From Candidatus Nomurabacteria bacterium (GTDB lineage Bacteria; Patescibacteriota; Minisyncoccia; Phycocordibacterales; SBAW01): a DNA stretch of 64,000 bases. Both the position numbers and the translations under genes were made by a program. Positions 40,985-64,000 of this stretch are shown here, in pieces. The notes beneath the pieces were generated by a model, which saw only the letters and a program-made list of their open reading frames with translations, made no database searches and was not told the DNA's origin. The stretch is from contig JADZGF010000016.1 in NCBI GenBank assembly GCA_020854065.1, positions 20,784 to 84,783 of the forward strand, read 5' to 3'. Positions within the stretch are counted from its first letter, which is position 1. Each line of letters opens with the position of its first letter.

Positions 40985-41470
40985 CTATTGTTTCATATCG
41001 TCCCCCGTCTCCATATGTATCTCTCGCTCCATCTCCCCCACCCCTTCACCACTAAAGCGAAGAGTGATGTCTGCAGGCGGAAGCAATGTACCTGCCTTCT
41101 CTGGCCACTCTATCAACACCAACGCCTTAGGGTCGTTTAGAAACTCTTCGGGTCGAAGGGTCTTAAACTCCTCTGGAGTCTCAAGCCGGTATGCATCGAT
41201 ATGAATAAGTCGGTTATAGCGGCGTGGTCTGCCAAAGGAGGTTCGGTCCCCTTCAAATGGATAGGACTTCATCAGTACATAGGTCGGACTTTGCACCACA
41301 TCGTTAATCCCGAGCTTGCGTGCAAACTCCTGCACAAACGTTGTTTTGCCTGAGCCCAAGTCGCCAGAGAGCGTCACCAGCGTGGCCGAATCCTTCTCAG
41401 GGAGCAACGAAAGCGCCGCCAGGACATTCCCGACAAAGTACGATAGCTCATATATCGGTACGACAGTCAT
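40985..41470 (-). CDS. tsaE: tRNA t6A biosynthesis ATPase TsaE
   Basis: LSGDLGSGKTTFVQ Walker A, YjeE family length. Confidence 0.85.
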   Translation of the reverse strand: MTVVPIYELSYFVGNVLAALSLLPEKDSATLVTLSGDLGSGKTTFVQEFARKLGINDVVQSPTYVLMKSYPFEGDRTSFGRPRRYNRLIHIDAYRLETPEEFKTLRPEEFLNDPKALVLIEWPEKAGTLLPPADITLRFSGEGVGEMEREIHMETGDDMKQ

Positions 41471-41496
41471 GCCGGGCAGTATACAATATATACATT

Positions 41497-46894: not shown

Positions 46895-49186
46895 ATGCGC
46901 GAGTGGCGGAACGCCCGCAAAAAACTCGACCCCCTCTTCCGTAAGGCAGACGATCATTTTGACCGCGGTGTTTCTTATACCCGGCGTCATTGGCGTGAGA
47001 TCTTGGTATATGGCACTGGTGCAGGCTTCTTTCTCGGCGGCGTGCTTTTTTTATGGGCAGGAACACTCCAGCTTCCTGACCTCTCAACACTTCAGGAAAT
47101 AAAGACCGAGCAGTCGGTTAAGCTCTACGATCGCACGGGCGAGGTCTTACTCTTTGATCTTAATAGCGACGCACGCCGAACCCTTATTCCCCTCTCAGCT
47201 GTTTCGCCCTACGTTCAACAAGCAGTTGTTGCAATTGAAGATCCAGAATTCTATACACACAAAGGTATTAAACCAACCGCAATCTTGCGCGCAGTCTTCA
47301 CCAACCTCATCCAAAGCGAGTTGTTAAGCGGCCAAGGTGGTTCCACCATCACACAGCAGGTCATTAAACTTTCCGTACTTACTTCGGACAAAACAATTAC
47401 CCGCAAACTCAAAGAGTGGGTGTTGGCAATGAAACTTGAGGGTGCGATGGAGAAAGACCAAATACTCGAGCTCTATCTCAATCAGGCACCCTATGGCGGT
47501 GTGATCTACGGCGTCGAAGAGGCGTCTATGGTCTTTTTTGGTAAACACGCCTCTGACGCTACTTTGCTCGAGGCGGCATACCTCGCAGCAGTACTCCCTG
47601 CCCCAAGCCGCCTTTCCCCATACAAAACCGATGCAGAGACGGGACGCAATCAACGGCTTGAAGCACGCAAAAATCTCGTGCTCGACAAAATGTATGAGCA
47701 TGGATACATCACCGTTGAACAGCGTGATGAAGCGAAAGCGGCACAAATAGAGTTTCTTCCCCCACGTGACACCTCAATCATTGCTGCCCACTTCGTCTTT
47801 TACGTAGAAGAATACTTGGAAGAAAAATACGGCGAAGAGGCACTGCAGCGTGGCGGGTGGCGCGTCATCACTACACTCGATGCCGAACTCCAGGCTGAGG
47901 CGGAAAAGATTGTATTCAAGCACGCCATGAATAACGTGGAATCCTTTAATGCAACAAACATGGCGTTAGTGGGTGTTGATCCACAAAATGGCCAAATTCT
48001 CACCATGGTTGGATCGCGTAACTATTTCGACGATGTAATACCGGGGGCGTATAACGTTGCGGCTGCAAGTCCTGGACGACAACCAGGTTCCGCATTTAAA
48101 CCATTTGCATATGCCGAAGCATTGCGTAAAGGCTACACTCCTGAAACGGTTGTGTTTGACGTACGTACCCAGTTCTCTACTGCGTGCGAGCCTACCAACA
48201 TGACGAGTGAGGGTAACTGCTACTCCCCTGGCAACTATGATGACAACTTCCGCGGCCCCATGACACTGCGTAACGCACTCGCACAATCAATCAACGTACC
48301 TGCGGTAAAAGTACTGTATCTTGCAGGTCTCTCTGATGTGCTGCGGCTTGCAAAGGCAATGGGTATCACTACCCTCGCTGACCCTGCACGATACGGCCTC
48401 ACGTTGGTACTCGGCGGTGGCGAAGTAACTCCCCTTGATCTCACGAGTGCATATGGTGTCTTTGCGAACAACGGTGTGCGATATGAACCAAGCGCTATCT
48501 TGCGCGTTGAAGACCCAACAGGTCGTGTGATCGAGGATAATAGCCAGCCAGTGGGCTCCCAGGTACTTGATCAGCATGTGGCCGAGCAGATTAACGACAT
48601 GCTCTCCGATACAGTAGCTTCAGCACCATTAGGTCTGGGTAATTTCCGTACTTTTTCTCAAGACGTTGCCCTAAAAACTGGTACCACCAACGACTATAGG
48701 GATGCCTGGATCGTAGGCTACACTCCGAACATTGCAGTTGGCGTATGGGCAGGTAATAACGACAACTCTGCAATGGAACGTCGCACTGGTGGATTAATTG
48801 TTGCTCCGGCATGGAGTGAATTCATGCGTTTTGCACTGTCTAAACGCCCCGTCAGCGCGTTTACACGTTCGGAATGGCCCAACCCCAACAAACCAGTATT
48901 ACAAGGCAACTGGAGCAATCCAGGCCGTGATGGATTGGTGCACGAAATTCTCTATTGGGTAGATAAAAACAATCCAACAGGTCCAGAACCATTTAATCCT
49001 GCGAGTGATCCACAGTTTGAATACTGGGATCTCCCGGTACGGAATGTATATGGCGCTGCAGTTGGTTCTGGTTCCTCATCAGGAGGTTCAAATCAATCAG
49101 AGGGTCCCCTTCAGGAAATAATTCCACCAGAGTATTTCGAATCTCAAAATCAGGCACCGTCAGGAACGCCGATTATAGAAAACTAG
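46895..49186 (+). CDS. class A penicillin-binding protein (glycosyltransferase + transpeptidase)
   Basis: GT51 motifs (AVVAIEDPEFYTHKGI, GGSTITQQ); transpeptidase SxxK, SxN (SINV), KTGT. Confidence 0.85.
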   Translation: MREWRNARKKLDPLFRKADDHFDRGVSYTRRHWREILVYGTGAGFFLGGVLFLWAGTLQLPDLSTLQEIKTEQSVKLYDRTGEVLLFDLNSDARRTLIPLSAVSPYVQQAVVAIEDPEFYTHKGIKPTAILRAVFTNLIQSELLSGQGGSTITQQVIKLSVLTSDKTITRKLKEWVLAMKLEGAMEKDQILELYLNQAPYGGVIYGVEEASMVFFGKHASDATLLEAAYLAAVLPAPSRLSPYKTDAETGRNQRLEARKNLVLDKMYEHGYITVEQRDEAKAAQIEFLPPRDTSIIAAHFVFYVEEYLEEKYGEEALQRGGWRVITTLDAELQAEAEKIVFKHAMNNVESFNATNMALVGVDPQNGQILTMVGSRNYFDDVIPGAYNVAAASPGRQPGSAFKPFAYAEALRKGYTPETVVFDVRTQFSTACEPTNMTSEGNCYSPGNYDDNFRGPMTLRNALAQSINVPAVKVLYLAGLSDVLRLAKAMGITTLADPARYGLTLVLGGGEVTPLDLTSAYGVFANNGVRYEPSAILRVEDPTGRVIEDNSQPVGSQVLDQHVAEQINDMLSDTVASAPLGLGNFRTFSQDVALKTGTTNDYRDAWIVGYTPNIAVGVWAGNNDNSAMERRTGGLIVAPAWSEFMRFALSKRPVSAFTRSEWPNPNKPVLQGNWSNPGRDGLVHEILYWVDKNNPTGPEPFNPASDPQFEYWDLPVRNVYGAAVGSGSSSGGSNQSEGPLQEIIPPEYFESQNQAPSGTPIIEN

Positions 49187-50277
49187 CGATTCATTGGCAT
49201 CGCCAAATAGAGGAATGACGAATCCGATGCATCTTTTATGAGCATCGCTTTTCCAGGACCATTCGAAGAAAGCCGTACTGAATCTCCACCAATAGACTGG
49301 AGGCTATCCATGAGGTAGCGGCCATTGAACGACATAGTGACTGGCTCCCCTTCTATCGTCGCTTTGATAGTTGATACTTGCTCACCTACATCAGGATTAC
49401 GCGAAGAAAGCACCACTGCTTTTTTAGATGGTTCGATTGAGAGTGATACTTGCGCAAACTTATCTGCAAACACTGAGAGTCCTTTGAGGATATTTGCAAA
49501 CTCTTCTCGAAGCACTACTGCTTCAGTACTAAAAGATTTTGGAATAATTTGTTTGTAGTTTGGAAACGTTCCGTCCAAGAGTCGGCTGGTGTAATACAAC
49601 CCGTCAGTTTGAAGAGAAATCTGATGATCATTGTAGTAGACCTCAATGTCGCCTTTTGCCGATTCAATCACTCGAAGAAGTTCTGATGCATTTCGTGCAG
49701 GAATAAGTATTTGTGGAACTCCCCCACCTTTCAGTGGTACCACCTTCTCTGCAAGACGGAATGAGTCAGTAGCTGCGGTTGTTAACATACCACCCTCAGC
49801 GCTAATCATTACACTCTGAAGTTCTGGTTTTACTGCAGATACTGAGGCGCAATAGACCACTGATTGAATTGCTTTTATAAACTCATCTACTTTTACGGTA
49901 AAAGATTTCTCTGCAGATACCCGAGGAAGAATTGGAAAATCCTCATGTGGAATTGTTTTTATAGACGCACTTACTTGCTCAGTCTCAACCTTTAACACTT
50001 CTCCGACTATGTGCGCACTAAAATTCTTTCCTTTCGTATTCTGGAGAAAACCTGCCAATACACCTCCAGGCACTGCAACCGTTCCTGCAACTGATACTTT
50101 TGCTGGTACCACTACCTCCACACCACACTCAAGGTTAGTTGCACGTAAGGTGACTCGACTCCCCTCTGCAACAATTAAGATTGCTGCTAACACCGGAAGG
50201 TTCGGTCTCTTCTCAGTAAAACGAGCAACAACTGAAACCGCGGTGATCAGTTCTGTGAGTGTGGTTTCAAATTTCAT
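49183..50277 (-). CDS. dnaN: DNA polymerase III beta sliding clamp
   Basis: three-domain clamp of ~364 aa directly downstream of dnaA. Confidence 0.85.
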   Translation of the reverse strand: MKFETTLTELITAVSVVARFTEKRPNLPVLAAILIVAEGSRVTLRATNLECGVEVVVPAKVSVAGTVAVPGGVLAGFLQNTKGKNFSAHIVGEVLKVETEQVSASIKTIPHEDFPILPRVSAEKSFTVKVDEFIKAIQSVVYCASVSAVKPELQSVMISAEGGMLTTAATDSFRLAEKVVPLKGGGVPQILIPARNASELLRVIESAKGDIEVYYNDHQISLQTDGLYYTSRLLDGTFPNYKQIIPKSFSTEAVVLREEFANILKGLSVFADKFAQVSLSIEPSKKAVVLSSRNPDVGEQVSTIKATIEGEPVTMSFNGRYLMDSLQSIGGDSVRLSSNGPGKAMLIKDASDSSFLYLAMPMNR

Positions 50278-50398
50278 AACTTGTTATATATAAACCTATT
50301 ACTACTATTAGCGCTGTGGATAGTGGAGAAGTCGATTTTATCTTTACCAAATAACGTATTTTTATACAACCGATATCCACAAGTGTTCTAACAACAAT
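50278..50398. promoter_or_regulatory. oriC segment with DnaA boxes and AT-rich unwinding element between dnaA and dnaN
   Basis: TGTGGATAG (50315-50323) and ATATCCACA (50373-50381), each one mismatch from the TTATCCACA consensus; flanking AT-rich runs. Confidence 0.5.
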
Positions 50399-51733: not shown

Positions 51734-51838
51734 GAGCAAAAAAGTAATATCAGGATACGCGAGCAATCCAGATGCGTCAAAATGGTCAGGCTTGTGTATA
51801 TGTTGTGGATTATTTGTGTATAGGGTAGTATTGACCTC
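51734..51838. promoter_or_regulatory. dnaA/rpmH divergent promoter region with DnaA-box-like sites
   Basis: TGTGGATTA at 51804-51812 and nearby TGTGTATAT/TGTGTATAG. Confidence 0.4.
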
Positions 51839-51973
51839 ATGTCGCAAACGTACCAACCAAAAAAGCGCAAACGCGCTCGCGCCCACGGCTTCCTTTCGCG
51901 TAAAGCGTCGCCTGGTGGTCGCAAGACGGTGCTTCGCCGCCGCCGCAAAGGACGCAGCCGCCTCAGCGCCTAA
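51839..51973 (+). CDS. rpmH: 50S ribosomal protein L34 (44 aa, absent from ORF track)
   Basis: Hand translation MSQTYQPKKRKRARAHGFLSRKASPGGRKTVLRRRRKGRSRLSA matches L34 (TFQPS..KR.R.HGFR.RM.T..GR.VL..RR.KGR..L). Confidence 0.8.
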   Translation: MSQTYQPKKRKRARAHGFLSRKASPGGRKTVLRRRRKGRSRLSA

Positions 51974-51986: not shown

Positions 51987-52283
51987 ATGTTGCCTAAAAA
52001 GAACCGCCTCACCGCTCGTGAGGTCCGTGCAACCCTTAAAGAGGGTAAAAGTGTTCGAAAAAGCAGTGTTTCTGCTCGTTTTGTGTCTACAGCAAAGGCA
52101 GGCAAGGCTGCCATAGTGGTTTCCACTAAAGTTGCCCGTAAGGCTACGGATCGTAACCGCTTGCGTCGTATGGGCTACGCCGCCCTCCCTACTCCCCTCC
52201 CGAAAGGAAACCTGGTGCTTTTTATTCAAACGCCTGAATTTAAAACTGCGGATATACTGTCCCTATGTTCAACACTTTCTTAG
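51987..52283 (+). CDS. rnpA: ribonuclease P protein component
   Basis: KKNRLTAREVRATLKEGKSV...ATDRNRLRRMG; rpmH-rnpA-yidC-jag order. Confidence 0.8.
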   Translation: MLPKKNRLTAREVRATLKEGKSVRKSSVSARFVSTAKAGKAAIVVSTKVARKATDRNRLRRMGYAALPTPLPKGNLVLFIQTPEFKTADILSLCSTLS

Positions 52284-52972
52284 TCCAGCCGATCTATAAC
52301 GCGTTCATTTTCTTAACCGGTGTTATGCCAGGCGCTGATGCAGGCCTTGCAATTATCGCCATAACCATTGTCATGCGGGTACTGCTCTATCCGCTCTATA
52401 CCTCCCAGATCCGCACACAGATCGGTATGTCGGCACTGCAGCCAGAACTTGAGGTACTGAAGGAGAAGCATAAAAACGATCGGGAGAAGATGGCCCGAGA
52501 GCAAATGGCGCTGTTTAAGAAGTACAAAGTAAACCCACTTGCTACTATTTTTGTGCTTATTATCCAGTTGGTGGTTATGCTCGCGCTCTATTTTGCGCTC
52601 TTCCATGAACAACTCCCTACAGTAGACACAGACTTCCTCTACTCGTTTGTCGAAGCACCAGCGCACATATCGACCTCATTCTTTGGTCTCCTCAATCTCC
52701 TTACCCCGCACCACATTATCCTGGCTGCACTCGTAGCGCTCTCCCAATACATCGCTATTTCCCTTACCTTGCGCCGTACCCCCGTTCCTGCCAATCTCCC
52801 TCCTGAGAAGGCGCAGGTTCAGCGGATGCAGCAAGGTCTCATGCTCTACTTCATGCCTGCCCTTATGGGTATATTCTCGTATTTCTTCCCAGGAGGCGTC
52901 GGTCTCTACTTCCTTGCAGGAAATGTGCTCTCTATAGGTCAGGAGTGGCTTATAAAACATAAATTCGCCTAA
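52265..52972 (+). CDS. yidC: membrane protein insertase YidC (short Oxa1-type)
   Basis: 5-TM core, conserved helices, C-terminal basic tail. Confidence 0.85.
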   Translation: MFNTFLVQPIYNAFIFLTGVMPGADAGLAIIAITIVMRVLLYPLYTSQIRTQIGMSALQPELEVLKEKHKNDREKMAREQMALFKKYKVNPLATIFVLIIQLVVMLALYFALFHEQLPTVDTDFLYSFVEAPAHISTSFFGLLNLLTPHHIILAALVALSQYIAISLTLRRTPVPANLPPEKAQVQRMQQGLMLYFMPALMGIFSYFFPGGVGLYFLAGNVLSIGQEWLIKHKFA

Positions 52973-52997: not shown

Positions 52998-53468
52998 TTG
53001 TGTATCGTGGGGTGTATGGATACTGCAGCTCTCTCAGCATTCTCCCGGAAACTTATTGAGCAGCTCGGGTGCACCATAGAGGCGCTTGAAGTTGAGACGG
53101 GGCATCGAACTACCGTCCGCGTTACCACTCCTGATTCTAAAGAACTTATCGGTCCTGGTGGTGAACATTTGCGCGCATTAAATGCGATTGCAAAGCGCAT
53201 GGTCGAGCATGCTCATGGAGAAGAGGCTTCCTCCTTTTTTATCGACGTAAATAACTATCGAGAGCAGGAGCTTGAGGGTGTGCGTCAAAATGCACGTATG
53301 TTTGCACAGCGTGCGCGTCTTTTTAAACACGATGTTGAATTACCTCCACAAAGTGCATACGAGCGTTTAGTGGTTCACGAACTGTTTGCTGAGGATCCTG
53401 AGATAGCAACAGAATCTGCTGGCGAGGGTAAGTTTCGCCATATCGTACTTAAGTACAAAACAAACTAG
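52998..53468 (+). CDS. Jag/KhpB-like RNA-binding protein (KH + R3H domains)
   Basis: IGPGGEHLRALNAIAKRM KH-like segment and R3H (PPQSAYERLVVHELFAE). Confidence 0.7.
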   Translation: MCIVGCMDTAALSAFSRKLIEQLGCTIEALEVETGHRTTVRVTTPDSKELIGPGGEHLRALNAIAKRMVEHAHGEEASSFFIDVNNYREQELEGVRQNARMFAQRARLFKHDVELPPQSAYERLVVHELFAEDPEIATESAGEGKFRHIVLKYKTN

Positions 53469-54676
53469 AAGAGTCGTACGCCCCAGAGGCTGCGTTCACC
53501 TTTTTTAATGTAGAGGAGATATCGCTCGTCAGGTGAGAGCGCCATGTCATCTATTTCTGAGGTAATACCACCATCAGCGCTTCCAGGAATAGCGATGAGT
53601 GTCGCGTAGTTGTTGCTGTCATATGAGACGATCTGTTGCCCTACTCCCCCAGTGCCGAGATGGTATAGGTCGATGTAGTTCTCCGGAACGTATGTAGCAG
53701 CGGTGGCGCAATACGAGACGATAAATGTTCGGCTCCATATACACTGCTCAGGGAGTGGATCAAAAGAGATTGCCGCATTGGTACCACTTTGCATATTTCG
53801 TGCGTAGGTGATGCGGCCTGCGGTGCCGCCGGTCGTGTGATATACCACCCGATCTAGTCCCCAACTTGCGCTCAGTGATAGTCCTGCAGCTGAGAGGAGT
53901 GGTGTTACTACTCCACTTTCCACTTCGATAGTGAATGCCATACCCATAACCCCGTATGCAGGAGCGGTGTAGGCAAGGACGGTGTTCTGTGTGGGCCATA
54001 CAAGCTGTATTTGTGCGAATGGAAGGCTAAAAGCTTTGCGTGCCTGGGTTCCGTCGGGGTTAGCGATGTACCCGTCACTTCCTGTGGTTGTTTGCAGAAG
54101 GTATACGACCTTTGTCGCATCAGGTGAAACTGCAATGCTCTTTATATCGTTTGCCAAAAATTGGATACGTACCGGAGCTGATTGTGTTGAAGTGGTTGCT
54201 GCAGGCAGGTTAAGTAAGAGTGTTTTGAGGGCATTTTGGTTTACATACTGCAGAATTCCAGCAGGACCAACCCAGGTTACTTCTGCGACGCCAGGGATGG
54301 TGGTGTTAGAAACAACACGAGGCACCGCTCCTGGTACATCTACGGGAAGATCAAATGAGCGACCGTTATCTGCCATGACAAAGCGCGCAATGGTTGTGGT
54401 GGGGTTTAAGGTCTGTACAAACGTTGCCCCTGCAACCGGTCCGTCAGATATTTTAAATATGCGTAAGTTGCTGCCATTTTGAGCATTATTAGTGTTTGTG
54501 TTTTGGGATTGCTCTTCCCCGCTGCTGAGACTTACATCGGTTTGAGTGTTTAAGCTTCCAAAATTTTCTGGTGGGGTTTGTGGTGTTTCTTGTCTGCCAA
54601 ACAAAAACCATGACACAAGCACCAACAGTGCTGTTGTGCCGATGAGGATACCGATGAGTTTCCAGTTGAGGTTCAT
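53465..54676 (-). CDS. secreted beta-propeller (TolB/PD40-like) protein
   Basis: N-terminal signal/TM; repeated SPD..K/YL..YI blade motifs (SPDATKVVYLL, SPDERYLLYIKK). Confidence 0.4.
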   Translation of the reverse strand: MNLNWKLIGILIGTTALLVLVSWFLFGRQETPQTPPENFGSLNTQTDVSLSSGEEQSQNTNTNNAQNGSNLRIFKISDGPVAGATFVQTLNPTTTIARFVMADNGRSFDLPVDVPGAVPRVVSNTTIPGVAEVTWVGPAGILQYVNQNALKTLLLNLPAATTSTQSAPVRIQFLANDIKSIAVSPDATKVVYLLQTTTGSDGYIANPDGTQARKAFSLPFAQIQLVWPTQNTVLAYTAPAYGVMGMAFTIEVESGVVTPLLSAAGLSLSASWGLDRVVYHTTGGTAGRITYARNMQSGTNAAISFDPLPEQCIWSRTFIVSYCATAATYVPENYIDLYHLGTGGVGQQIVSYDSNNYATLIAIPGSADGGITSEIDDMALSPDERYLLYIKKGERSLWGVRLF

Positions 54677-54679
54677 ATG

Positions 54680-55249
54680 TTATCGAGGTACGCACTGCCA
54701 ACCACCTGGTACGTAGTTTATTCGTCCAGGCGGTTGACCTGACTGGCATGCGCGGATTTCATCTCCGGCGGGTTGACTATTTTGGACAGATACTCCCGAT
54801 ACAGGAGCACTGGTAGAGGTTCCTCTACTTAGTTGTTCGAGAGCGGTGTCGAATCGATCCAAACTTATCAACTGGGGGTTTATGGTGTACAGGAGTACGT
54901 ATGAACCGAGTAGTACAACAAGGCCGTACACTGCCCGTTGCATCTGCTTTCTTCCTAAATCCTTTGATTTGGCAACATCCGATACCATATACATAATGCC
55001 GCCCCATACAAATGTTGCTACGGCAAACATGCCACCAATGACGATAAAGAGTGTAAAGGCATAGTTGAGGTACGATCCAAAATCAACACCTTGTGATCCA
55101 ATTTGTTGTCCAGGGAGTGGCTCAAGTGGTATGTAACTACATCGAGTTCCTGTGCAAAACTCCGTCTGGGTTGTGGGAGTTGTTTGCGCCTGCAGAGAAA
55201 GCGGCAAGAATACAAACAGCAGAGCGATGGTAAGGATTAGTCTTTTCAT
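54680..55249 (-). CDS. candidate VirB2/TrbC-like pilin (signal peptide + TM hairpin)
   Basis: Signal peptide ending SLQA/QT; two TM helices separated by basic loop KSKDLGRKQMQRA; position in T4SS-like cluster. Confidence 0.35.
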   Translation of the reverse strand: MKRLILTIALLFVFLPLSLQAQTTPTTQTEFCTGTRCSYIPLEPLPGQQIGSQGVDFGSYLNYAFTLFIVIGGMFAVATFVWGGIMYMVSDVAKSKDLGRKQMQRAVYGLVVLLGSYVLLYTINPQLISLDRFDTALEQLSRGTSTSAPVSGVSVQNSQPAGDEIRACQSGQPPGRINYVPGGWQCVPR

Positions 55250-56289
55250 AGATTAAATAAATTGAAAGGCGATCCGGATCCTTGGCCAAAGAGTATACGT
55301 ACTGCATTTTCTGCAGCTTGCACAAACTCTGCAGGGTTATTGTTTTGAAGAGAGACACTCAATAAAGATTCACCTTCCCCTGTTCCTGTTTGTCGCAGTG
55401 TAAGGATACCCTGCGCGGCATCAGGGCCGGTTGCTTCGGCGCCATCCAACCGCCATGCATAACTTAGTGCCCCACCTTTTTTACTCGGATTGGAATAATA
55501 AAATGGTTCGGCTTTTATTGAAATCTCGCTATCGATGAGTGAAATACCGTTAGTGAGTGCCTGATCGTATATAGGGCCCCGTAATGCATCGTGTTGGTAA
55601 AGAATGACAAGTGGTTCGGTTGTAGGAATAGAGACATACCCCACCCCTACTTTTACAGTACCTGCATATACGTCAACTTGTATATCTTCTGACGTCTTAA
55701 GTTGGTCACCGGAAAAGCGGAATGTGGTACGGCCCAAGCCTGATGCGGCTGGTACAGGTTCACCACCACGCTGCCACTGATAGGACAGGACATTAGGAGA
55801 TACACGCGATGTTCCTTGGTACACCGTTGGGAGCGCAACGACAGTGAGGGGTGAACCAGCACTATAAAGTGCTTTCCCGCGGTAAAGGGGCGGTATTGAG
55901 GTGTCCGCTTCCCACAAAAGGGTAACAGTCGAGGGACTGAAGTTAAACGTTTTATTGAAATTGCCCGCAGTTGACTCAATTGTTACTCGTATAGTTGTCG
56001 TTTTGCCAAATGCTCCGGTTGTAAAAGAGTACTGTCTCTCCCCAACCCCGCTTTTTACTACACTTCCGTCCTGGGACCAGGTTATCTTTGATTCCCCAAT
56101 AAAGCTCCCAGTCCCTTCTATGTCGATAGTTACCACCTGGTTTGCTCCTGGTGTATCGGGAGAGACAACGTAGCGCACAGGGTCTGGTACCGCTGTTTGC
56201 GCAAACAGTATCGCTGGGGCAAAGAGCCCAAGTGTTATAGCTATGTTACGCAGCTGTCGCATATGATTGATTGTTAACCCGTACTCCAT
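55246..56289 (-). CDS. secreted protein of unknown function in T4SS-like cluster
   Basis: Signal peptide, beta-rich 347-aa protein. Confidence 0.35.
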   Translation of the reverse strand: MEYGLTINHMRQLRNIAITLGLFAPAILFAQTAVPDPVRYVVSPDTPGANQVVTIDIEGTGSFIGESKITWSQDGSVVKSGVGERQYSFTTGAFGKTTTIRVTIESTAGNFNKTFNFSPSTVTLLWEADTSIPPLYRGKALYSAGSPLTVVALPTVYQGTSRVSPNVLSYQWQRGGEPVPAASGLGRTTFRFSGDQLKTSEDIQVDVYAGTVKVGVGYVSIPTTEPLVILYQHDALRGPIYDQALTNGISLIDSEISIKAEPFYYSNPSKKGGALSYAWRLDGAEATGPDAAQGILTLRQTGTGEGESLLSVSLQNNNPAEFVQAAENAVRILFGQGSGSPFNLFNL

Positions 56290-56749
56290 CGATATTTACC
56301 CGTGAGTTTTCTGCAGGTTGAGTTTCGGCACGCTCCTCGGCCTCGTCGGCCGCTTTTCGCTCCTCTTTATGGATGCTTCGAATAGTGAGTATTGTGGCAA
56401 TAGTCCACCATGGAAGGTTATTTACGCCAGGGATTATTTCTCCAAAAAGTGCAATAAAAATGCGGCGCAAGATAATAGCCTCGATTCTCGTTTTTAAGCG
56501 GTGAGAATTGCTGTTAAAGGTTATGTACATACCAAACATGTGTCCTACGCCAGCCGTAAGGCTTATTGAACCGTTTATAGCCACCCCCATAGCAATACCA
56601 AGTGGCATACTCGCCGCACTGGTGATTTGCCCCAAAATTGGAATTGCATTAACTCCTGCGAGTAACCCAATGATTGAGAGGGAGATTCCTGCCTGGAGTA
56701 TGTCTATAAATAGGGCAAAAACTATAAACGGCATGCCTTTAAGCCACAT
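56246..56749 (-). CDS. 4-TM membrane protein of unknown function in T4SS-like cluster
   Basis: 167 aa, hydrophobic core, charged C-terminal tail. Confidence 0.35.
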   Translation of the reverse strand: MWLKGMPFIVFALFIDILQAGISLSIIGLLAGVNAIPILGQITSAASMPLGIAMGVAINGSISLTAGVGHMFGMYITFNSNSHRLKTRIEAIILRRIFIALFGEIIPGVNNLPWWTIATILTIRSIHKEERKAADEAEERAETQPAENSRVNIDGVRVNNQSYATAA

Positions 56750-56753
56750 GGCT

Positions 56754-58565
56754 TTATTGTACCGCCACTTCAGCGCGCTTCTTGCGCAATGCCAACACCT
56801 GGCTTGGGTCCGAAGTAATGATCTGATCTTCGGTATATGAGGCGATCACCTTAATAGCAACGTGTTTTAAGCCTGCAAAGAAGATTCCCTCCCCTACATC
56901 TGACTCTAGGAGCAAGAATTTCTCCTCGTCCGAGAGGTTAAATGTCTTTTGCAGGGTATCAATAGTGGTCGGTGACTGTTTTAGCAGTATTTGGATGGAT
57001 GAGTTGGTGATCATCGGCAATCCATACGGTGACTTCAAGAAGTCATCAACGTCTTGGGTGATGGTGGCAAGGCCCAAGTAGTATTTACGGCCGCGCTTTG
57101 CCATACCGTAGAGGAAGCTCGCGGTGTCATCACTCTTCATCATCCACCATGCCTCATCGATAACAAGTAGGCGCTTTTTTAGGTTTTTACGCACTGCATT
57201 CCAAATGTAGTGGGTAATGAGGTACATGGCGACGGGTTTAAGGTCATCTTCCATGTCTCGAACTGAGAACACTACAAAACGCTTGTTAAGGTCGACGTTG
57301 GTTGGTTGGTTGATAAACCCTGACCACGTACCTTTGGTGTATTTAGAAAGTCTTTGCACCAAAGACTCTGACCCTTCCATTCCCGCTAACACCAATTCAA
57401 AGTCGGAAAGGAGCGGTGGCTCTATTTCTGCGAAGTTACTATCGACGGTGATGTCTTTCAGAGCGTAGGTTTCAGTAATTGCTTTATCGATGATTGCATC
57501 TTCTTCAGGGGTAAGACCGCCGAGCATGATGCGGAACATGCCGACTAGCGCCACAATGTTGCTGCGCAAAACATCTGCGGGTGACTCATCCTCACGTGGA
57601 GGTGCCAAGTCGAACGGATTGATGTGGTGCTCGGAGTTAAGCGAGATGTTGAAGTAACGTCCCCCTACTGCTTGGGAGAGGAACTCATATTCACGCTCAG
57701 GGTCGATAACAATAACTTCGGTATCAAACATGAGTGTACGCAAAATCTCAAGTTTGGTTGCATAACTTTTACCTGAACCTGATTTTGCGAAAATAACTGA
57801 GTTGTAGTTTTCAAGACTAAAACGGTCGAAGAGGACTAACGAAGCGTTGTGTCGGTTAACTCCGTAGAGAATACCTTTGTCGGAAGTAAGGTCAAACGAT
57901 ACGAATGGGAATATTGAAGAGAGAGGGCTTGAGTTGAGTTTAGAGTGGACTCCCAATTCGTCGCGTCCAAGTGGAATTACCGATTTAAATCCCTGCTCTT
58001 GTTGGAATAGTGCCGGTTTTACATATACCAAACGGCTCTCGAGCATAGACTTAATCTCGCTCTCAGACTTATCAAGTTCTTCCGCTGTGGTTCCGTATAT
58101 GGTGATGTATACGCCTACATCAAAGAGTTTCTCTTGCGCCTGCTGCAATTGATCACGGAGGGATTCAAGGTCTTGATATGCGGTGTCTAAGACTGGGTCG
58201 CGAACCAAGCCTTTCTCCTCGCGGGACATAATCTGGCTTTGCACTTCAGCCACTTTCTTTTGGAACTTCTTCAGTATCTCCCCCGAGTCGATGGGATGAA
58301 TATAAATAGATATATCGAGTACTTTGTCGAGGTTGATGATGGGAGCAAACCATGAGTCCGTAAGTGTGCGCGGGTATGACATGACAAAGAAGGTTCGAGC
58401 AATTTTGTCTCCGAGGTTTATTTCGCGCGGCGTAATCTTCAGTGCAGAAGGGGCAATAACGTCTTGAAGCTCAAGGACACCCTCCTTGTATATCTGCTCG
58501 GGCAAGATCGGCGCAATAGGCGCTTGCGAATCTCTTTGTTTTTTTAAGAAGTCAAGAAATGCCAT
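56754..58565 (-). CDS. VirB4/TrbE/CagE-family type IV secretion ATPase (C-terminal ATPase portion)
   Basis: Walker A IFAKSGSGKSYATK, Walker B LLVIDEAWWMM, motif C-like GLATITQ; start at MAFLDF. Confidence 0.8.
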   Translation of the reverse strand: MAFLDFLKKQRDSQAPIAPILPEQIYKEGVLELQDVIAPSALKITPREINLGDKIARTFFVMSYPRTLTDSWFAPIINLDKVLDISIYIHPIDSGEILKKFQKKVAEVQSQIMSREEKGLVRDPVLDTAYQDLESLRDQLQQAQEKLFDVGVYITIYGTTAEELDKSESEIKSMLESRLVYVKPALFQQEQGFKSVIPLGRDELGVHSKLNSSPLSSIFPFVSFDLTSDKGILYGVNRHNASLVLFDRFSLENYNSVIFAKSGSGKSYATKLEILRTLMFDTEVIVIDPEREYEFLSQAVGGRYFNISLNSEHHINPFDLAPPREDESPADVLRSNIVALVGMFRIMLGGLTPEEDAIIDKAITETYALKDITVDSNFAEIEPPLLSDFELVLAGMEGSESLVQRLSKYTKGTWSGFINQPTNVDLNKRFVVFSVRDMEDDLKPVAMYLITHYIWNAVRKNLKKRLLVIDEAWWMMKSDDTASFLYGMAKRGRKYYLGLATITQDVDDFLKSPYGLPMITNSSIQILLKQSPTTIDTLQKTFNLSDEEKFLLLESDVGEGIFFAGLKHVAIKVIASYTEDQIITSDPSQVLALRKKRAEVAVQ

Positions 58566-58566
58566 A

Positions 58567-59226
58567 TTATTTAACGAGTTGAATTGGTTTTTCGAGCTCG
58601 CCAGGATTGAAAAGCTTATAGAAGAGTTCGATAACCTCTTCAGTGCCAAGTGTTACCACCCGTACACCGGTGCGCACTAAGCCTTGCTCGATAACACTGA
58701 TGCGCTGTTCAATCTGGGTTCGGTATTGTTCGAACTGCTCATCGGTAAGTATGGCAGAAGTGCTCGGGCCAGTTGAAAGAAGATTTGAAAGTGCGCCACC
58801 CACTCCCCCGCCTCGCGCAACAAGTGCAGGATCATACGGCACCACGATAAAGAAGTTTTTACTCATGATGTTCGCGCGCTCGGTGAAGTCTTTGATGAAA
58901 GCAATATATTCACGGATCTGTATTTTCATAAGATCGTCGAGTTCTTTAACGTAGCGGTCTTCCAGGAGTGCAATGTATGGGCGGATATCGAGTTCTCTAC
59001 TCTCGACAAAAAACTGTACGCTAAATTCTAGTGAGTTAAGAAAGTTTTGAAATTGTCCAATAACTGCCTGTTGTTCATCTTGCGATTTAAGCGCGAGGTT
59101 AATGGAGGATGCCATAAGTACCGCACGCAGACTTCCGTCCTTGAGCACCACAATACCGTCGCGTACCTCTTTAAGTGGTACGAAATCCTGCGTTGCTTGT
59201 GATTTAACTTTAGTGTTGGTAGGCAT
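58567..59226 (-). CDS. VirB4 N-terminal-domain-like protein (separate ORF; possible split VirB4)
   Basis: DGIVVLKDGSLRAVLMASSINL...IRPYIALLEDRY resembles the VirB4 N-terminal region; its stop codon is 1 nt from the ATG of the VirB4 ATPase ORF, in a different frame. Confidence 0.45.
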   Translation of the reverse strand: MPTNTKVKSQATQDFVPLKEVRDGIVVLKDGSLRAVLMASSINLALKSQDEQQAVIGQFQNFLNSLEFSVQFFVESRELDIRPYIALLEDRYVKELDDLMKIQIREYIAFIKDFTERANIMSKNFFIVVPYDPALVARGGGVGGALSNLLSTGPSTSAILTDEQFEQYRTQIEQRISVIEQGLVRTGVRVVTLGTEEVIELFYKLFNPGELEKPIQLVK

Positions 59227-59231
59227 GGGTA

Positions 59232-59684
59232 TTAAATTTGGAAACCTGCTCTGGGCTGTTGAGGCTCTTCTTGTGCCCTGTCTTTGATATTAAGCGACCA
59301 AGAGAGGTCTCGGAGTTTGCTTTCGGAGAGTTTGGGGACAGGGAGCGCCTCGGTTGGTTTCTGGCCAGGAGCCACCGCCTCTGTTGGTGCAGATTTTTGG
59401 GGAGTGCGCGGTGCCCAAAGGTAGAGCTTGCTCCCTATGTAATAGCTAAATGCGTGTTCCATAGCGACGATGAAAGGTCTGTCGTTGATTTCGTAAAATG
59501 CGAGCGCGAGAGAAAGTGCAAGAGGCGGAAGCATAAGCGGTATAGAGAGCCATAGTGGTAATACCGTAAAGAGCGCCAAGCATATACCTCCACCTCCTGC
59601 GACATAAATAAACTGCTTGAGCGTGAGTGGCCCAAAGATCTTGTCCTCGACCTCAATGAATTGGGGCACCTGGTACTGCGCCAT
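59232..59684 (-). CDS. PrgI/TcpE/VirB3-like small membrane protein
   Basis: FGPLTLKQFIYVAGGGGICLALFTVLP two-TM signature, immediately upstream of VirB4 ORFs. Confidence 0.45.
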   Translation of the reverse strand: MAQYQVPQFIEVEDKIFGPLTLKQFIYVAGGGGICLALFTVLPLWLSIPLMLPPLALSLALAFYEINDRPFIVAMEHAFSYYIGSKLYLWAPRTPQKSAPTEAVAPGQKPTEALPVPKLSESKLRDLSWSLNIKDRAQEEPQQPRAGFQI

Positions 59685-59700
59685 TACCCTTAGTATAGCG

Positions 59701-60240
59701 CTATTCTGCTGGCTCTCGGTATGGGTCGACCTTAACAATAGGTTTTTCTTGCGGTTTTGGTGCAGGAGCTACACTTGCAGTGGGTTGTGTCAGTATAGTT
59801 TCGGCGTGTACGTCGACTGGTTTTTCAACTCTCTGTACTGCTGAAGGTTGAATTGGGGTCGTTTCTGGTGGTTGAGGAGCGGAAACATCAGGGGTAACTG
59901 CAGGTTGTTCAGGATGTCGCTCTTCCATGAAGCGCTTCATAGACTCACGGATAGGTAAAAAGATTTCAGTATTTACTTCGGCTGCAAGTACTTGAGCTTT
60001 CTCGGGTGGGATATGCAATTGCTCGGCAATTTGCGGCGCAAATTCGTCTGTTCCTGCAAAACCGAGCATGACGAGGAGTGTCTCGTCTTCGAGCAAACCC
60101 ATTTGATCAATATGGAGCGCGTGTCGCTGCCCTATCTCACGGATCTTAGGTTCCCATGAGGCCGACTCTATGGCGTGCCGAACATCTGGAGGGAGTTCGG
60201 CGAGTCGCTGAGCTATTTTTGCTTGAATATCTTGTTCCAT
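59701..60240 (-). CDS. hypothetical protein with Pro-rich C-terminus
   Basis: 179 aa, helical N-half, PQPPETTPIQP tail. Confidence 0.3.
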   Translation of the reverse strand: MEQDIQAKIAQRLAELPPDVRHAIESASWEPKIREIGQRHALHIDQMGLLEDETLLVMLGFAGTDEFAPQIAEQLHIPPEKAQVLAAEVNTEIFLPIRESMKRFMEERHPEQPAVTPDVSAPQPPETTPIQPSAVQRVEKPVDVHAETILTQPTASVAPAPKPQEKPIVKVDPYREPAE

Positions 60241-60257
60241 ATCATTCTCTATTGTAC

Positions 60258-62993
60258 CTAAGCAACATTCCGATCTTCACTTGGCGGGACATTGTCGTTA
60301 GCTGCGTTGTTTAACTGATTTTGGTCGACTCCTATATTTCCCTGTTCTGGGAGTTTTTGAGCTTTCGGTATCGTTTGTTGAGGAGTTGAAGCTAAATGCT
60401 GTGCCGTCTTTTCAGTACTTTTTACCACCTCTTTTAGTCCGCTTTGAAGTCCACGAAGTGTGTCGAGCGATTTATCATCAAGCGCAACCTTCGGCGTATC
60501 GGTCAGGCCCGGAGTGCTTGGTTTGTTATCTACATAGGATTTAACCTCAGGAGTACTTGGACGTGATACGACTTCGTTAAGGGGTAGCGGTGCTGAACGA
60601 TCGGATGATGTCACTTCTGTGCGCATTTCATCAAGTACTCGACGCACGGCCGTTTCTCCACTTATAGTGCTAGCGGCATGAGTAGTGGCGCCACTTGGGG
60701 TACTAGAAGGGACTGCGGTTCCAGCTATTGCTGGAGTTGGTGTGGTGGGGGGTGTTGGGGGCGCAGAAGCAGGAGATCCAGAGGGAGATGGTCCGCCGCC
60801 TGGGCCTCTACCCGGGCCTCCACCACCGCCTGGGCCTCCACCACCACCTCCTGGCCCACCGCTTGGTCCCCCGCCAGATAGGGGTGGGGTGGTGGCATTT
60901 TTTATGAGGCTTCTCAAACGATCCGCCTCTTCTTTAGGTGCACGAAGTTGTGCAGCGGCTTCAGCGTCCGCTGCAGATATCCAACCAGGGACTGGAAAAT
61001 GGCCTGTTGCGCCGTAGAGATTCTGCTTCGACATTATGTCAATTGAGTTTGCATAATTGCTGACGTTTCCGGAACCAGCGAGTTTTTTAGCATTATCGAG
61101 CAGAGGTTTTAGCTCGTCATCGTAGCGTTTCTTGGCTTTTTTGAGGTCACGTTCGGATATTTCACCTGAATCAAAACGAGCTTGGTCACGAGCGTAATTT
61201 TCTTCAGCAGCTTGGAGATGCATTTTGTCCACCGGCGCCATCTGTTTCAACGCTTCTTCTTGCGCTTTTTGTGTTTGTCGGTCAGTTGGCTTGAGTTTGT
61301 TTGCTTCACTAACACGTTTTGTTATACGGTCGCTGTATGATTTGACGTAACCACCAGTTGCGCCTGCGGTAGTATCAACACCAATCTTTCCAAGTCCTTT
61401 GCGAGCGCTTTCAATATTACGTACATCGAAACTCTTTTTACTCAAAGCGCCAGCCCCTCGCCACAAGCCGCCACCAATAAAACGATTTCTTGAAGCTAAT
61501 TCTTTAAGTCCTCTGCTGTTGTAGGCTGAGTTTGCAGCTGCCCCAATACTGTTGCGCATAGCCCATGCGCTGCCGCCAAAGAAAGCGCCGGTGCCTTTGC
61601 GGCTGACCCAATTGGTAAAGGTGCCTGCTGCTGTTGCACCCATTACTCCTACTTTGTCGGCGGCGCGCATACCAATATAGAGCATGGCAACCACAAAGCC
61701 GAGACGTATAGCAACGTTGGCGATACTAGCAGCGATGATTGATATAGCTGACGCAGTGTTTCCTGTATTTAAATCGCTTAAATCGCTAATAATGGACTGT
61801 GTTAGACCTCCTGCTGCTCCGGTAGGATTGAGATCCTTCATCACGAGTGAGATGAAGAGAAAGATAAAGAGGAATATGACTGGATAAAAGGTGTGGGTAA
61901 TAAGATATCTCTGCCACAAATCATAGTATTTACTCGACAAGGAAGTTGTTTTTGCGAGGAATGCCAGTGGTGATGCAACGATAAGGAACCACAGCACCAC
62001 GATGCGTGCTAAGAATTTAATTCCCGCTGCCAAAAACATTACAGCCAGGATAAAGTACATTGCGCCAACAGCAATATAAATAAACGAGAGTGTAAGAAAT
62101 ACATTGATTCCACCACCCACTCCTCTGTTTTGGTCCTTGTACCACTTGTCGAAAATGGCCGTACTAAAGAGTCCTTGCATGTTGAGTCCGTTCATAATCG
62201 GATGCGTAAGGTCTTTGGTGCGCTCGAAAGTTTTATTATTGCTTGTGAGAAATTGGGATGTGCTATTTATCGTACTTCCACCACGCGTATCTCCTAAAGT
62301 GTCCGCCAATGTCCTGCCGTCTGTTGGTACGGCGTTATAAAACTGCACCGCCAAAATGTTTCCCGCATCAATTACGAGACGAGTGAAGAAGAAGGAGAAA
62401 TTAATAATGAGCGCCATTACGATAACCCATGCAAGCATGCGCATGGTGCCACCTGACTCAGCTCTAAGTAATACGGTGTAGGCGATATAGACTAGCGCCA
62501 AAATAAAACCCATATTGGCAAGGTCGCGTGCCATAGTCCACCCTTGTGAGATAAAGCCCTGTGCATACGCTAAGCTGTTTAGTGCAAGACTCACTGCAAT
62601 ATTGAAGAAGTAGGCACCAATAAAAGCGAAAGTTGAACCTATGCCAACGGTAAATACGTAAATAACATTAGAGAGACAGAGGTCCCATGTTGAAGGACTG
62701 AATGAACAGCCGGTAGTGCCGTTTCGAGTAGCGGATACCGCGTCTCGTGTTCTCTGGGCAACCGCTTCTCTTAAGGCGGTTTGTGATTCAACGGTATCCA
62801 ACGAACTCAGGTAAGCGTTTTCTTCTGCGGTGCACGCCGACCCGCCTGAAGAGTTAACACACGCATCTGAGAGCTGCGATGAGCTTGTGATAGCAGCTAA
62901 AGTCGAGGATGGAGAACTTAATAGGATTATAAATCCCAACACAAATCCACCCACAAGGCTTATTATGAGTTTTTTTGTTACAAAGTTTGGCAT
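60258..62993 (-). CDS. VirB6/TrbL-like polytopic membrane protein with long C-terminal extension
   Basis: 911 aa; signal/TM, extracellular segment, at least 8 TM helices, then ~450-aa hydrophilic tail with Gly/Pro-rich tract. Confidence 0.45.
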   Translation of the reverse strand: MPNFVTKKLIISLVGGFVLGFIILLSSPSSTLAAITSSSQLSDACVNSSGGSACTAEENAYLSSLDTVESQTALREAVAQRTRDAVSATRNGTTGCSFSPSTWDLCLSNVIYVFTVGIGSTFAFIGAYFFNIAVSLALNSLAYAQGFISQGWTMARDLANMGFILALVYIAYTVLLRAESGGTMRMLAWVIVMALIINFSFFFTRLVIDAGNILAVQFYNAVPTDGRTLADTLGDTRGGSTINSTSQFLTSNNKTFERTKDLTHPIMNGLNMQGLFSTAIFDKWYKDQNRGVGGGINVFLTLSFIYIAVGAMYFILAVMFLAAGIKFLARIVVLWFLIVASPLAFLAKTTSLSSKYYDLWQRYLITHTFYPVIFLFIFLFISLVMKDLNPTGAAGGLTQSIISDLSDLNTGNTASAISIIAASIANVAIRLGFVVAMLYIGMRAADKVGVMGATAAGTFTNWVSRKGTGAFFGGSAWAMRNSIGAAANSAYNSRGLKELASRNRFIGGGLWRGAGALSKKSFDVRNIESARKGLGKIGVDTTAGATGGYVKSYSDRITKRVSEANKLKPTDRQTQKAQEEALKQMAPVDKMHLQAAEENYARDQARFDSGEISERDLKKAKKRYDDELKPLLDNAKKLAGSGNVSNYANSIDIMSKQNLYGATGHFPVPGWISAADAEAAAQLRAPKEEADRLRSLIKNATTPPLSGGGPSGGPGGGGGGPGGGGGPGRGPGGGPSPSGSPASAPPTPPTTPTPAIAGTAVPSSTPSGATTHAASTISGETAVRRVLDEMRTEVTSSDRSAPLPLNEVVSRPSTPEVKSYVDNKPSTPGLTDTPKVALDDKSLDTLRGLQSGLKEVVKSTEKTAQHLASTPQQTIPKAQKLPEQGNIGVDQNQLNNAANDNVPPSEDRNVA
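60770..60900. repeat. Gly/Pro-rich low-complexity tandem repeat inside the VirB6-like gene
   Basis: cctgggcctccaccacc repeated; encodes GGGPSGGPGGGGGGPGGGGGPG. Confidence 0.5.
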
Positions 62994-63994
62994 TGTTGTA
63001 GTGCGGTCTGTGTTTGTTGGTTTTGTGCGGCAAGCTCTGCCTGAAGGGTGGTACGGTCTTGTTGTGCGGTAGTGACCTGAGCTGCTGAAATAAGGGTGCC
63101 GTTAGCAACAGCTGCGTCTAGATCGTTTTTTACTGACGTTATTTGGTTTGGCGAGGTCGCTTGCAATAGACGACTCTGAAAGGCTTGAAGTGTTGCGATG
63201 ACTGTATTTGCTTCCGTAATTCGGCTGTTATAAAACGCCACACGCTGCTCGAGTGCTGTAATGCGGGCTGTTGTTGCGGCTGCTTGTGTGCTGTCATTTT
63301 TAAACTCATGACAGTTAACCAACTCTTGTATACGCTGTTGCGTTAATTGTATGTCGGTAATGGCACCTTGCGCCACGGCGCCATACTGGCTTGCGGTGTT
63401 TGATATGCCGCTGAGTGTAGTGAGAAGAGTGTTGCCTTGTGCTTGTGCCTGCTGCTGCTCCGGGGTAAGAAAATTTCCTTCGTACCCACCCAAGCCCCCG
63501 CTACCCGAAAGATTGGCAACACCACCTTGAAGTGCACGTAGCATTAATTGCTGTAGAAGCGCCGAGATTATGGTGTCGAAACTGCCAGCGACACCTGCTA
63601 ACTCAAGTGTTTTTTGCGAAACACCCAAGTTTTGCTCGAGTGCAGTTTCTATTGTTTTACCAGGCGTTACTATTTTACAGACCCGCACTGGATATGGGGT
63701 GCACTCCTCCATACTTAAAAATCCGCCAGGTGATATCTTTCGCTGCGCATCTAATTGCGCTCGGGCTTGTGTGTTACTTAACTCTACTTGGGCAAATGTG
63801 TAGGCGCCAAATGGGTTATTGGTGGGTACGGTCGTAAACTGTAATAAACCCGCCCACCCACCGCTGTTAAAGTTTCCATCCATAAAGTTTTGGATGTTGG
63901 AAGATACGCGCGACAGTGTGCATGATGCGGCATTACGTTTGGCATAACTCTGCGCAAGCGCAATACGTACTTTTAGCTGTATAGGGCTGCACAA
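62978..63994 (-). CDS. Gln-rich coiled-coil protein, 5' end probably beyond window edge
   Basis: 338+ aa, QQ-rich heptad-like repeats; ORF open to the window boundary. Confidence 0.3.
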   Translation of the reverse strand: MCSPIQLKVRIALAQSYAKRNAASCTLSRVSSNIQNFMDGNFNSGGWAGLLQFTTVPTNNPFGAYTFAQVELSNTQARAQLDAQRKISPGGFLSMEECTPYPVRVCKIVTPGKTIETALEQNLGVSQKTLELAGVAGSFDTIISALLQQLMLRALQGGVANLSGSGGLGGYEGNFLTPEQQQAQAQGNTLLTTLSGISNTASQYGAVAQGAITDIQLTQQRIQELVNCHEFKNDSTQAAATTARITALEQRVAFYNSRITEANTVIATLQAFQSRLLQATSPNQITSVKNDLDAAVANGTLISAAQVTTAQQDRTTLQAELAAQNQQTQTALQQCQTL

Positions 63995-64000
63995 AAATGA

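Follow-up and report, generated by a model that had tools for sequence, protein, structure and literature searches.

The right-hand end of the 64,000-nucleotide stretch of Candidatus Nomurabacteria DNA analysed here (hereafter the window), which comes from an ultra-small Patescibacteria (Paceibacteria) genome, carries a type IV secretion system (T4SS) gene cluster. Between positions 53465 and 64000, ten successive open reading frames (ORFs), all intact, are read in the same direction from the minus strand. They encode a VirB4 ATPase and a separate TrsD-like protein, a PrgI/VirB3-like membrane protein, a likely VirB6-like channel protein of 911 amino acids (aa), a VirB2-like pilin, and five accessory proteins designated g01, g03, g04, g08 and g10 (Table 1). 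With the best-supported start codons, neighbouring genes either overlap or are separated by no more than 17 nucleotides (nt), so the block is operon-like: g10 and the VirB6-like gene share 16 nt, g03 and the pilin gene share 4 nt, and one nucleotide lies between the TrsD stop and the VirB4 ATG. Scans for promoters and terminators inside the cluster returned counts at chance level. The cluster is very probably the T4SS already published from Patescibacteria between 2023 and 2025, of which it is an ordinary member.

The VirB4 body scores 393.5 bits against the NCBIfam CD1110 family (cut-off 325), aligning to model positions 145-733 of 752, and matches Pfam P-loop_TraG with an E value of 3.9e-27. 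Its translation contains the Walker A motif AKSGSGKS, and a motif scan identified the Walker B motif LLVIDE. The nearest homologues encoded on plasmids belong to the monoderms Streptomyces, Pontibacillus, Priestia and Clostridium, at 32-36% identity. Because the CD1110 match lies above its cut-off and these plasmid homologues all come from monoderms, VirB4 appears to be of monoderm affinity. Against the Ced ATPases, VirB4 has partial and weak matches, to CedB at E 1.3e-09 and to CedD at E 0.0015, which lie far under the NCBIfam cut-offs. The adjacent TrsD-like protein matches NCBIfam TrsD at E 1.3e-10; its score of 41.5 bits does not reach the curated cut-off of 200. Its orthologues in relatives are annotated as PF26593 TraC-like. 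In VirB4 models it aligns to positions 2-116 (CD1110) and 98-233 (Mbov_0397). The TrsD-like protein is a free-standing VirB4 N-terminal domain, and the two genes jointly cover one whole VirB4.

The first-pass annotation of this DNA, made from the sequence without database searches, had called VirB4 "split". Two genes are indeed present; the disruption that the word implies is not, and the word is misleading. We scanned GTDB species representatives for related clusters, which yielded 80 loci in records named Paceibacterota, Adlerbacteria, Nomurabacteria, Wolfebacteria, Minisyncoccia or generic Patescibacteria, with several labelled "uncultured Candidatus Saccharibacteria", and mapped their gene order by tblastn with the window proteins. 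Every related locus that reaches this point has a TrsD gene of about 220 aa followed by a VirB4 gene of about 600 aa, and a separate TrsD ORF of about 221 aa is found in 64 loci. Between the window and its closest relative (locus L001), the ratio of nonsynonymous to synonymous substitution rates (dN/dS) is 0.005 for VirB4 and 0.019 for TrsD. Across 30 species, the proportion of nonsynonymous differences (pN) is 0.075 for VirB4 and 0.13 for TrsD, and the proportion of synonymous differences (pS) is saturated. The two-gene form is thus the conserved native arrangement, and reading VirB4 as a frameshift or pseudogene was rejected, given that both parts are intact in more than 60 related genomes and under strong purifying selection.

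Profile searches also directly bear out the first-pass assignments of PrgI/VirB3 and of the pilin, as they do that of VirB4. The PrgI/VirB3-like protein reaches 38.3 bits against PF12666 (cut-off 27), has one strong hydrophobic segment, and has orthologues annotated with the same family; its start is probably the ATG at 59684, which gives 150 aa. The pilin, g02, scores 33.4 bits against PF18895 (cut-off 26.6), a family that its orthologue in locus L002 also matches. It combines a signal peptide and two hydrophobic helices (hydrophobic segments 4-22, 64-82 and 106-124) with a C-terminal extension that contains cysteine.

The VirB6-like assignment of the 911-aa protein was reached indirectly. 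At least seven hydrophobic helices are present, with a transmembrane domain at about residues 100-470, then a helical cytoplasmic region, and a tail rich in glycine, proline, serine and threonine from about residue 700. The protein itself has no Pfam match and no score against PF04610 (TrbL/VirB6), so the earlier assignment has no direct profile behind it; what backs it is transitive and structural. Its family comprises 263 proteins at E<=0.001, the named ones being Paceibacterota, Adlerbacteria or Patescibacteria group records, and seven of 48 aligned homologues match PF04610 (best E 8.8e-08). In a Foldseek search of the PDB with an AlphaFold2 model of residues 1-600 (predicted local distance difference test, pLDDT, 73.9), ranks 1-6 were all TrwI/VirB6 chains of R388 (best in 8rt9, 8rtd and 7o3v), with probabilities of 0.84-1.00, target template-modelling scores of 0.45-0.50 and weak E values of 0.035-0.42. 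The family profile searched against PDB sequences gave coiled-coil noise and no VirB6. The 911-aa protein is therefore described here as likely VirB6-like, an assignment less firm than the other four.

Table 1. Genes of the T4SS cluster and of the adjoining origin side, with the evidence for each. Median identity is the median amino acid identity to the window protein across related loci; for UvrD and KsgA it is to the protein of locus L002.
Feature	Position	Strand	Evidence or remark	Median identity
g01, 403 aa, N-terminal membrane anchor	53465-54676	-	hydrophobic helix; sub-threshold TolB/PD40	43%
g02, VirB2-like T4SS pilin, 189 aa	54680-55249	-	T4SS_pilin PF18895	38%
g03, secreted or anchored protein, 338-347 aa	55246-56289	-	conserved; no family match	48%
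g04, small polytopic membrane protein, 167 aa	56246-56749	-	hydrophobic helices	28%
VirB4 ATPase body, 603 aa from ATG at 58565	56754-58565	-	NCBIfam CD1110 family	91% (minimum 70%, 56 loci)
TrsD-like protein, 219 aa	58567-59226	-	NCBIfam TrsD; VirB4 N-terminal model positions	80%
PrgI/VirB3-like membrane protein	59232-59738	-	PF12666	59%
g08, soluble protein, 179 aa	59701-60240	-	no hydrophobic segment; 30 orthologues aligned	39%
Extended VirB6-like channel protein (likely), 911 aa	60258-62993	-	transitive PF04610; fold match	~38-40%
g10, C-terminal 341 codons only	62978-64000	-	frame open to window edge	41%
dnaN	49183-50277	-	ORF	
dnaA	50399-51733	-	ORF	
rpmH	51839-51973	+	ORFs and translation; operon convergent with cluster	
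rnpA	51987-52283	+	ORFs and translation	
yidC	52265-52972	+	ORFs and translation; 60KD_IMP orthologue at same position in relatives	50%
jag	52998-53468	+	ORFs and translation; R3H orthologue at same position in relatives	61%
UvrD, KsgA				~61-62%

On its left side the cluster adjoins dnaA, dnaN, rpmH, rnpA, yidC and jag; the first-pass annotation had placed it close to rpmH, rnpA, yidC, jag and the replication origin. The distance of about 1 kb that it gave does not hold: g01, the terminal gene of the cluster, runs down to 53465, so that it shares 4 nt (53465-53468) with jag, whose stop codon lies there. The two genes converge, an orientation relative to jag that is repeated in the relatives mapped. 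DnaA-box-like nonamers with one mismatch occur at 50315, 50373 and 50445, in or beside the dnaN-dnaA spacer, and at 51804; on the plus strand, GC skew stays below zero across 1-53 kb and above zero from about 53 kb on. The boxes and the skew suggest that oriC lies in the dnaA region, and the origin-proximal position of the cluster is real, since dnaA and dnaN, the DnaA-box-like sites and the change of skew sign all adjoin it. If oriC does lie there, transcription of the operon runs toward the origin and head-on to the rightward fork. The mechanically called dnaA ORF reaches 52126, with 131 extra codons upstream that overlap rpmH on the opposite strand; the start is likely MTTTKELW at 51733, and the upstream extension is almost certainly untranslated.

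The sequence past position 64000 was read from the relatives; the exact 911-aa protein has no database record. In these loci, the upstream order is a LysM-M23 gene on the opposite strand, UvrD, KsgA, a protein of about 290 aa designated u1, and g10 (607-693 aa); the core follows as VirB6-like, g08, PrgI, TrsD and VirB4; and downstream lie g04, g03, the pilin and g01, then the convergent jag, yidC and rnpA, and then dnaA. The upstream order (LysM-M23, UvrD, KsgA, u1, g10, VirB6) is kept in 50 of the 59 loci with enough upstream sequence, and the downstream order (VirB6, PrgI, TrsD, VirB4, g03, pilin, g01, convergent jag) in 42 of the 47 with enough downstream sequence. The cluster thus occupies the same site, between ksgA and jag and beside dnaA, in about 80 species. 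Because this order is conserved, the right flank of the window itself almost certainly consists, as predicted from relatives, of the rest of g10, u1, ksgA and uvrD. The glutamine-rich protein had been said to run off the window, and so it does: its frame is open to 64000, and u1 lies beyond it in relatives. In about 60 relatives, a LysM-LysM-Peptidase_M23 gene stands four genes upstream of the VirB6-like gene (positions 2882-3682 of L002 and 3345-4448 of L004); its product is a candidate stand-in for the VirB1-type wall hydrolase.

Genes of conjugation and integration were looked for in the window and in the flanks of the relatives. Pfam scans covered twenty window ORFs outside the cluster (all of at least 414 aa, plus ten of 250-392 aa), with no relaxase, coupling protein or integrase among them; all families identified are housekeeping or unrelated ones, including tRNA synthetases, PolA, serine hydroxymethyltransferase (SHMT), a Mur ligase, RuvB, TatD, a PilB-type ATPase and a Fic protein. 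Within the cluster, VirB4 is the sole FtsK/HerA-type P-loop protein. The 10-kb flanks of the roughly 80 relatives hold no VirD4, relaxase or integrase, and every gene from ksgA to jag is accounted for in them, which leaves no room for a coupling protein or relaxase. Neither a tRNA gene at the cluster border nor a compositional break was found. The absence of relaxase and VirD4 noted at first pass therefore extends to the scanned ORFs and to the relatives' flanks, where the region beyond 64000 offers only u1, KsgA, UvrD and LysM-M23. The comparison of gene order with Gram-positive and Candidate Phyla Radiation (CPR) systems, also proposed there, gave agreement with the published T4SS of Patescibacteria.

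The components of the cluster differ widely in conservation (Table 1), VirB4 being far more conserved than the nearby YidC, Jag, UvrD and KsgA. Its synonymous sites are saturated between species (median pS 0.80, pN 0.075), and we accordingly read its conservation as the mark of old, intense purifying selection and long vertical descent, not of recent transfer. A different history is suggested for the VirB6-like gene. Over g08, PrgI, TrsD and VirB4, the DNA of the window is 94% identical to that of L001, with a synonymous divergence (dS) of 0.21-0.47, and the VirB6-like proteins of the two are only 55% identical with a dS of 2.3; the C-terminus of g10 has a dS of 0.86. The more distant L085 shares 79% DNA identity with the window over PrgI-TrsD-VirB4, yet its VirB6 is 72% identical. 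Because divergence from L001 and L085 is incongruent between virB6 and its neighbours, these values suggest that the virB6 allele, and in part g10 too, was replaced by recombination. It is conceivable, though we would not favour it at present, that the system consists of two layers, a near-frozen VirB4 motor and a fast-turnover outer module of VirB6, g10 and pilin whose alleles, exchanged by recombination among lineages, would determine which host cell can be tapped.

The accessory proteins g01, g03, g04, g08 and g10, like u1, have no Pfam or NCBIfam family in the window proteins or the orthologues examined, apart from weak PD40 and Tricorn_N matches in relatives of g01. Profiles of g10, g03, u1, g01 and g08 gave nothing significant against PDB sequences; the sole coherent signal among the accessory profiles was that of g01, with TolB chains at the top at sub-threshold E values of 0.12-0.68. 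As g01 has a single N-terminal hydrophobic helix, PD40 matches in six of 30 family members and a weak Tricorn_N match recorded for its L002 orthologue, it is a probable TolB/PD40-like beta-propeller outside the cell. The product of g03 has 55% mean column identity over 31 genomes; an invariant methionine at residue 10 suggests a start at 56262, and the protein was judged beta-rich from its sequence. In locus L030, g04 and g03 form a single ORF of 509 aa (L030 7463-8992), and ORF calls suggest the same fusion in about four other loci; g04 and g03 are therefore two halves of one unit, with g04 as the membrane half. In the alignment of g08 orthologues, the N-terminal 105 aa or so form a conserved helical domain; the proline-rich linker that follows varies, and the C-terminus carries a hardly changing motif, Y-K-x-D-P-Y-R-E-P, which looks like a docking peptide.

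The part of g10 inside the window contains 12% glutamine and 13% alanine. Full-length orthologues (607-693 aa) add a transmembrane helix, a glycine/serine linker and a strongly conserved domain with invariant cysteines before the C-terminal Gln/Ala-rich helical bundle. In the AlphaFold2 model of a full-length orthologue, only the transmembrane helix and the bundle (pLDDT >95) are confident, the Cys-rich domain having a pLDDT below 50. The protein is membrane-anchored and presumably extracytoplasmic, and PF01471 (PG_binding_1), carried by three homologues, hints at a cell-wall-associated role. Identification of g10 as a VirB5-like, VirB1-like or VirB10-like protein was considered and found unsupported, the fold search having given generic helical bundles only.

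Several further genes of the window were noted outside the T4SS and its flanks. A PilB-type T2SSE ATPase with an MshEN domain (41320-43176, plus strand) implies that, apart from the T4SS, there is a type IV pilus or a type II secretion-like system. The minus strand encodes a 448-aa Fic/DOC domain protein (36632-37978) and a 624-aa DUF11-repeat protein (7575-9449); both may act in host interaction or at the cell surface, and the genes around them are otherwise housekeeping ones. At 10012-13356, also on the minus strand, lies a class I tRNA synthetase of 1114 aa, isoleucyl-type by its domains, into which a His_Phos_1 histidine phosphatase domain (E 2.5e-23) is inserted at residues 507-591.

Clusters of this kind have been described in two studies. 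Using transposon sequencing (Tn-seq), Wang et al. (2023, Cell) showed that Southlakia epibionticum cannot grow epibiotically without an "apparent T4SS", SEML1_0006-0019, which is similar to the conjugative systems of Gram-positive bacteria, includes essential pilins and has no recognisable coupling protein or relaxase (PMC10633639). In a survey of the phylum, Quinonero-Coronel et al. (2025, Microb Genom) placed most VirB4 proteins in one clade related to MPF-FATA and found TrsD, PrgI/VirB3, VirB6 and VirB2-like pilins as common neighbours of virB4 (PMC12102498). That placement is consistent with the present locus, because its nearest plasmid VirB4 proteins come from monoderms. According to the same survey, relaxases are rare, VirB8 and VirB1 are mostly undetectable, and VirD4-like genes occur in many Patescibacteria, usually far from virB4; the TrsD-TrsE pair is the pGO1-subclass arrangement of monoderm conjugation systems, to which the TrsD-VirB4 pair of the window corresponds; and the Paceibacteria clusters have dnaA, dnaN, rnpA, rpmH and ksgA close by, which the authors read as a gene-dosage advantage (PMC12102498). 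A 2025 review restates the points of the survey and of the Southlakia study (PMC12857230).

Taken as a whole, the cluster is likely to be this known T4SS acting as a non-conjugative, pilus-forming machine for contact with a host cell. It would have derived from monoderm (MPF-FATA) conjugation machinery with the loss of the DNA-processing parts. In the proposed mechanism, PrgI and the VirB6-like protein would form a membrane platform on which VirB4 hexamers, together with TrsD, dock and extract pilin from the membrane, with the pilin then polymerising to give a short pilus or conduit. Extracellular proteins with a membrane anchor (the g01 propeller, g04-g03 and g10) may extend the structure across the cell wall as far as the host cell, for contact-dependent exchange between the host and an epibiont of reduced genome. 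This sketch draws on what is established for VirB-type systems and on the R388 structure. In R388, VirB4, VirB6 and VirB2 play such a pilus-building role. On the present analysis, protein export or a physical conduit seems more likely than DNA transfer.

Several points weigh against this interpretation. The VirB6 assignment depends on the transitive Pfam matches and on a fold match with weak E values, and the pilus is deduced from a pilin gene in a system known here from its genes. No VirB8-like or VirB1-like protein was recognised inside the cluster by Pfam, NCBIfam or PDB profiles, and the nearest candidate hydrolase, the LysM-M23 protein, is encoded outside the window, at a distance of four genes upstream in the relatives. 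The negative result for relaxase and VirD4 covers the scanned window ORFs and the relatives' flanks, and this genome might carry a VirD4-like gene at some other place, as many Patescibacteria do (PMC12102498).

The alternatives concern the origin, the integrity and the direction of the machine. VirB4, TrsD, PrgI and VirB6 stem from monoderm conjugation systems and the window stops inside the cluster, so that an integrated conjugative or mobilisable element, with its relaxase, coupling protein and integrase past 64000 or elsewhere, might be imagined. The same site is nevertheless occupied in about 80 species, between u1/KsgA/UvrD/LysM-M23 on one side and jag/yidC/rnpA/dnaA on the other, no integrase, border tRNA gene or compositional break accompanies it, and the saturated synonymous sites of VirB4 speak of long vertical descent. 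Vertical inheritance at a fixed chromosomal site, with conserved flanks and synteny, makes this explanation very improbable, and an integrated conjugative element is effectively excluded. Still less credit is due to the idea that the cluster is decaying, the remnant of a broken T4SS whose VirB4 is frameshifted and which no longer has a function. The two VirB4 reading frames, 1 nt apart, and the lack of recognisable VirB8, VirB1 and VirD4 could be taken that way, but the two-gene form is intact in more than 60 genomes, all ten window ORFs are intact, and the dN/dS values against L001 and the low pN against saturated pS across 30 species are those of genes under constraint.

The direction of transport is a closer matter. 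ComB of Helicobacter and the archaeal Ced system import DNA, and the same machine could likewise work inwards, as an import device supplying the epibiont with DNA, nucleotides or other macromolecules of its host. No relaxase or coupling protein was found near the cluster, just as ComB has no nearby VirD4; VirB4 has its weak partial matches to CedB and CedD; and import is the hypothesis favoured by the authors of the survey, in line with the presumed dependence of the organism on host-derived building blocks (PMC12102498). The Ced matches, however, amount to ordinary P-loop similarity, and no DNA-binding component was recognised in the cluster by Pfam or NCBIfam. Moreover, transformation of Southlakia needs comEC, which is dispensable for growth, whereas the T4SS is essential (PMC12857230); its essential role must therefore be something other than DNA uptake as such. 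We consider import unlikely but worth keeping in view, as sequence data do not separate it from export. The first-pass annotation had preferred an effector or host-interaction T4SS to a conjugative element; its non-conjugative half stands on the evidence given above, and its functional half, still a proposal, agrees with published views.

A large part of the uncultivated bacteria are Patescibacteria, which apparently live attached to other microbes. Few machines have been shown to be indispensable for this epibiotic lifestyle, and the T4SS, on the evidence of one cultivated species, is among them. The present locus adds no new kind of system and is a clean, complete example of the Paceibacteria arrangement. 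Should the two-layer turnover prove general, virB6 and g10 would determine the host range of an essential conduit for feeding or attachment. The conservation contrast, the mosaic virB6, the g04-g03 fusion, the g08 motif and the convergence on jag were not found in PMC12102498 by term search; the first four are modest, testable leads rather than discoveries.

Among known systems, the diderm VirB-type T4SS of R388 (TrwI/VirB6, TrwM/VirB3, TrwK/VirB4 and TrwL/VirB2) shares with the window cluster the VirB6-like fold, the VirB2-type pilin family and the VirB3-VirB4 pairing. It differs in having VirB5, VirB7, VirB9, VirB10 and VirB11, which the window cluster lacks, and in its TrwI, to which the much longer VirB6-like protein here (911 aa, with a large C-terminal extension) is 12-16% identical.

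Closer are the monoderm MPF-FATA systems of pGO1/pSK41 (TrsC, TrsD, TrsE), pCF10 (PrgH, PrgI, PrgJ) and the Clostridioides conjugative transposon (CTn, with a CD1110-type VirB4). In these systems the VirB8-like protein is PrgL/TraM and the VirB1-like protein is PrgK/TrsG. The window cluster has in common with them the VirB4 family, a separate TrsD-like N-domain as in pGO1, PrgI, a PrgH/VirB6-type protein and the lack of outer-membrane core proteins. In contrast to them, no relaxase, coupling protein, recognisable VirB8-like protein (PrgL) or VirB1-like hydrolase was found here. The window cluster also sits at a fixed chromosomal site instead of on a mobile element, and it includes a VirB2-like pilin, which is absent from monoderm conjugation systems (PMC12857230).

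The T4SS of Southlakia ML1 (Ca. Southlakia epibionticum), the only member with experimental evidence, is likewise of monoderm type; it has pilin genes, neither a coupling protein nor a relaxase is recognisable in it, and its low locus-tag numbers suggest a position near the chromosome start, as here. It belongs to another class, Saccharimonadia, has six divergent pilins where the window has one, and carries peptidase and lysozyme genes directly downstream of virB4. The Paceibacteria T4SS of the phylum survey (PMC12102498) shows no essential difference from the window cluster: both combine VirB4, TrsD, PrgI/VirB3, VirB6 and a VirB2-like pilin without a relaxase or a nearby coupling protein, their origin-side neighbours match, and a LysM/M23 peptidase gene accompanies the cluster, in our case in the relatives of the window.

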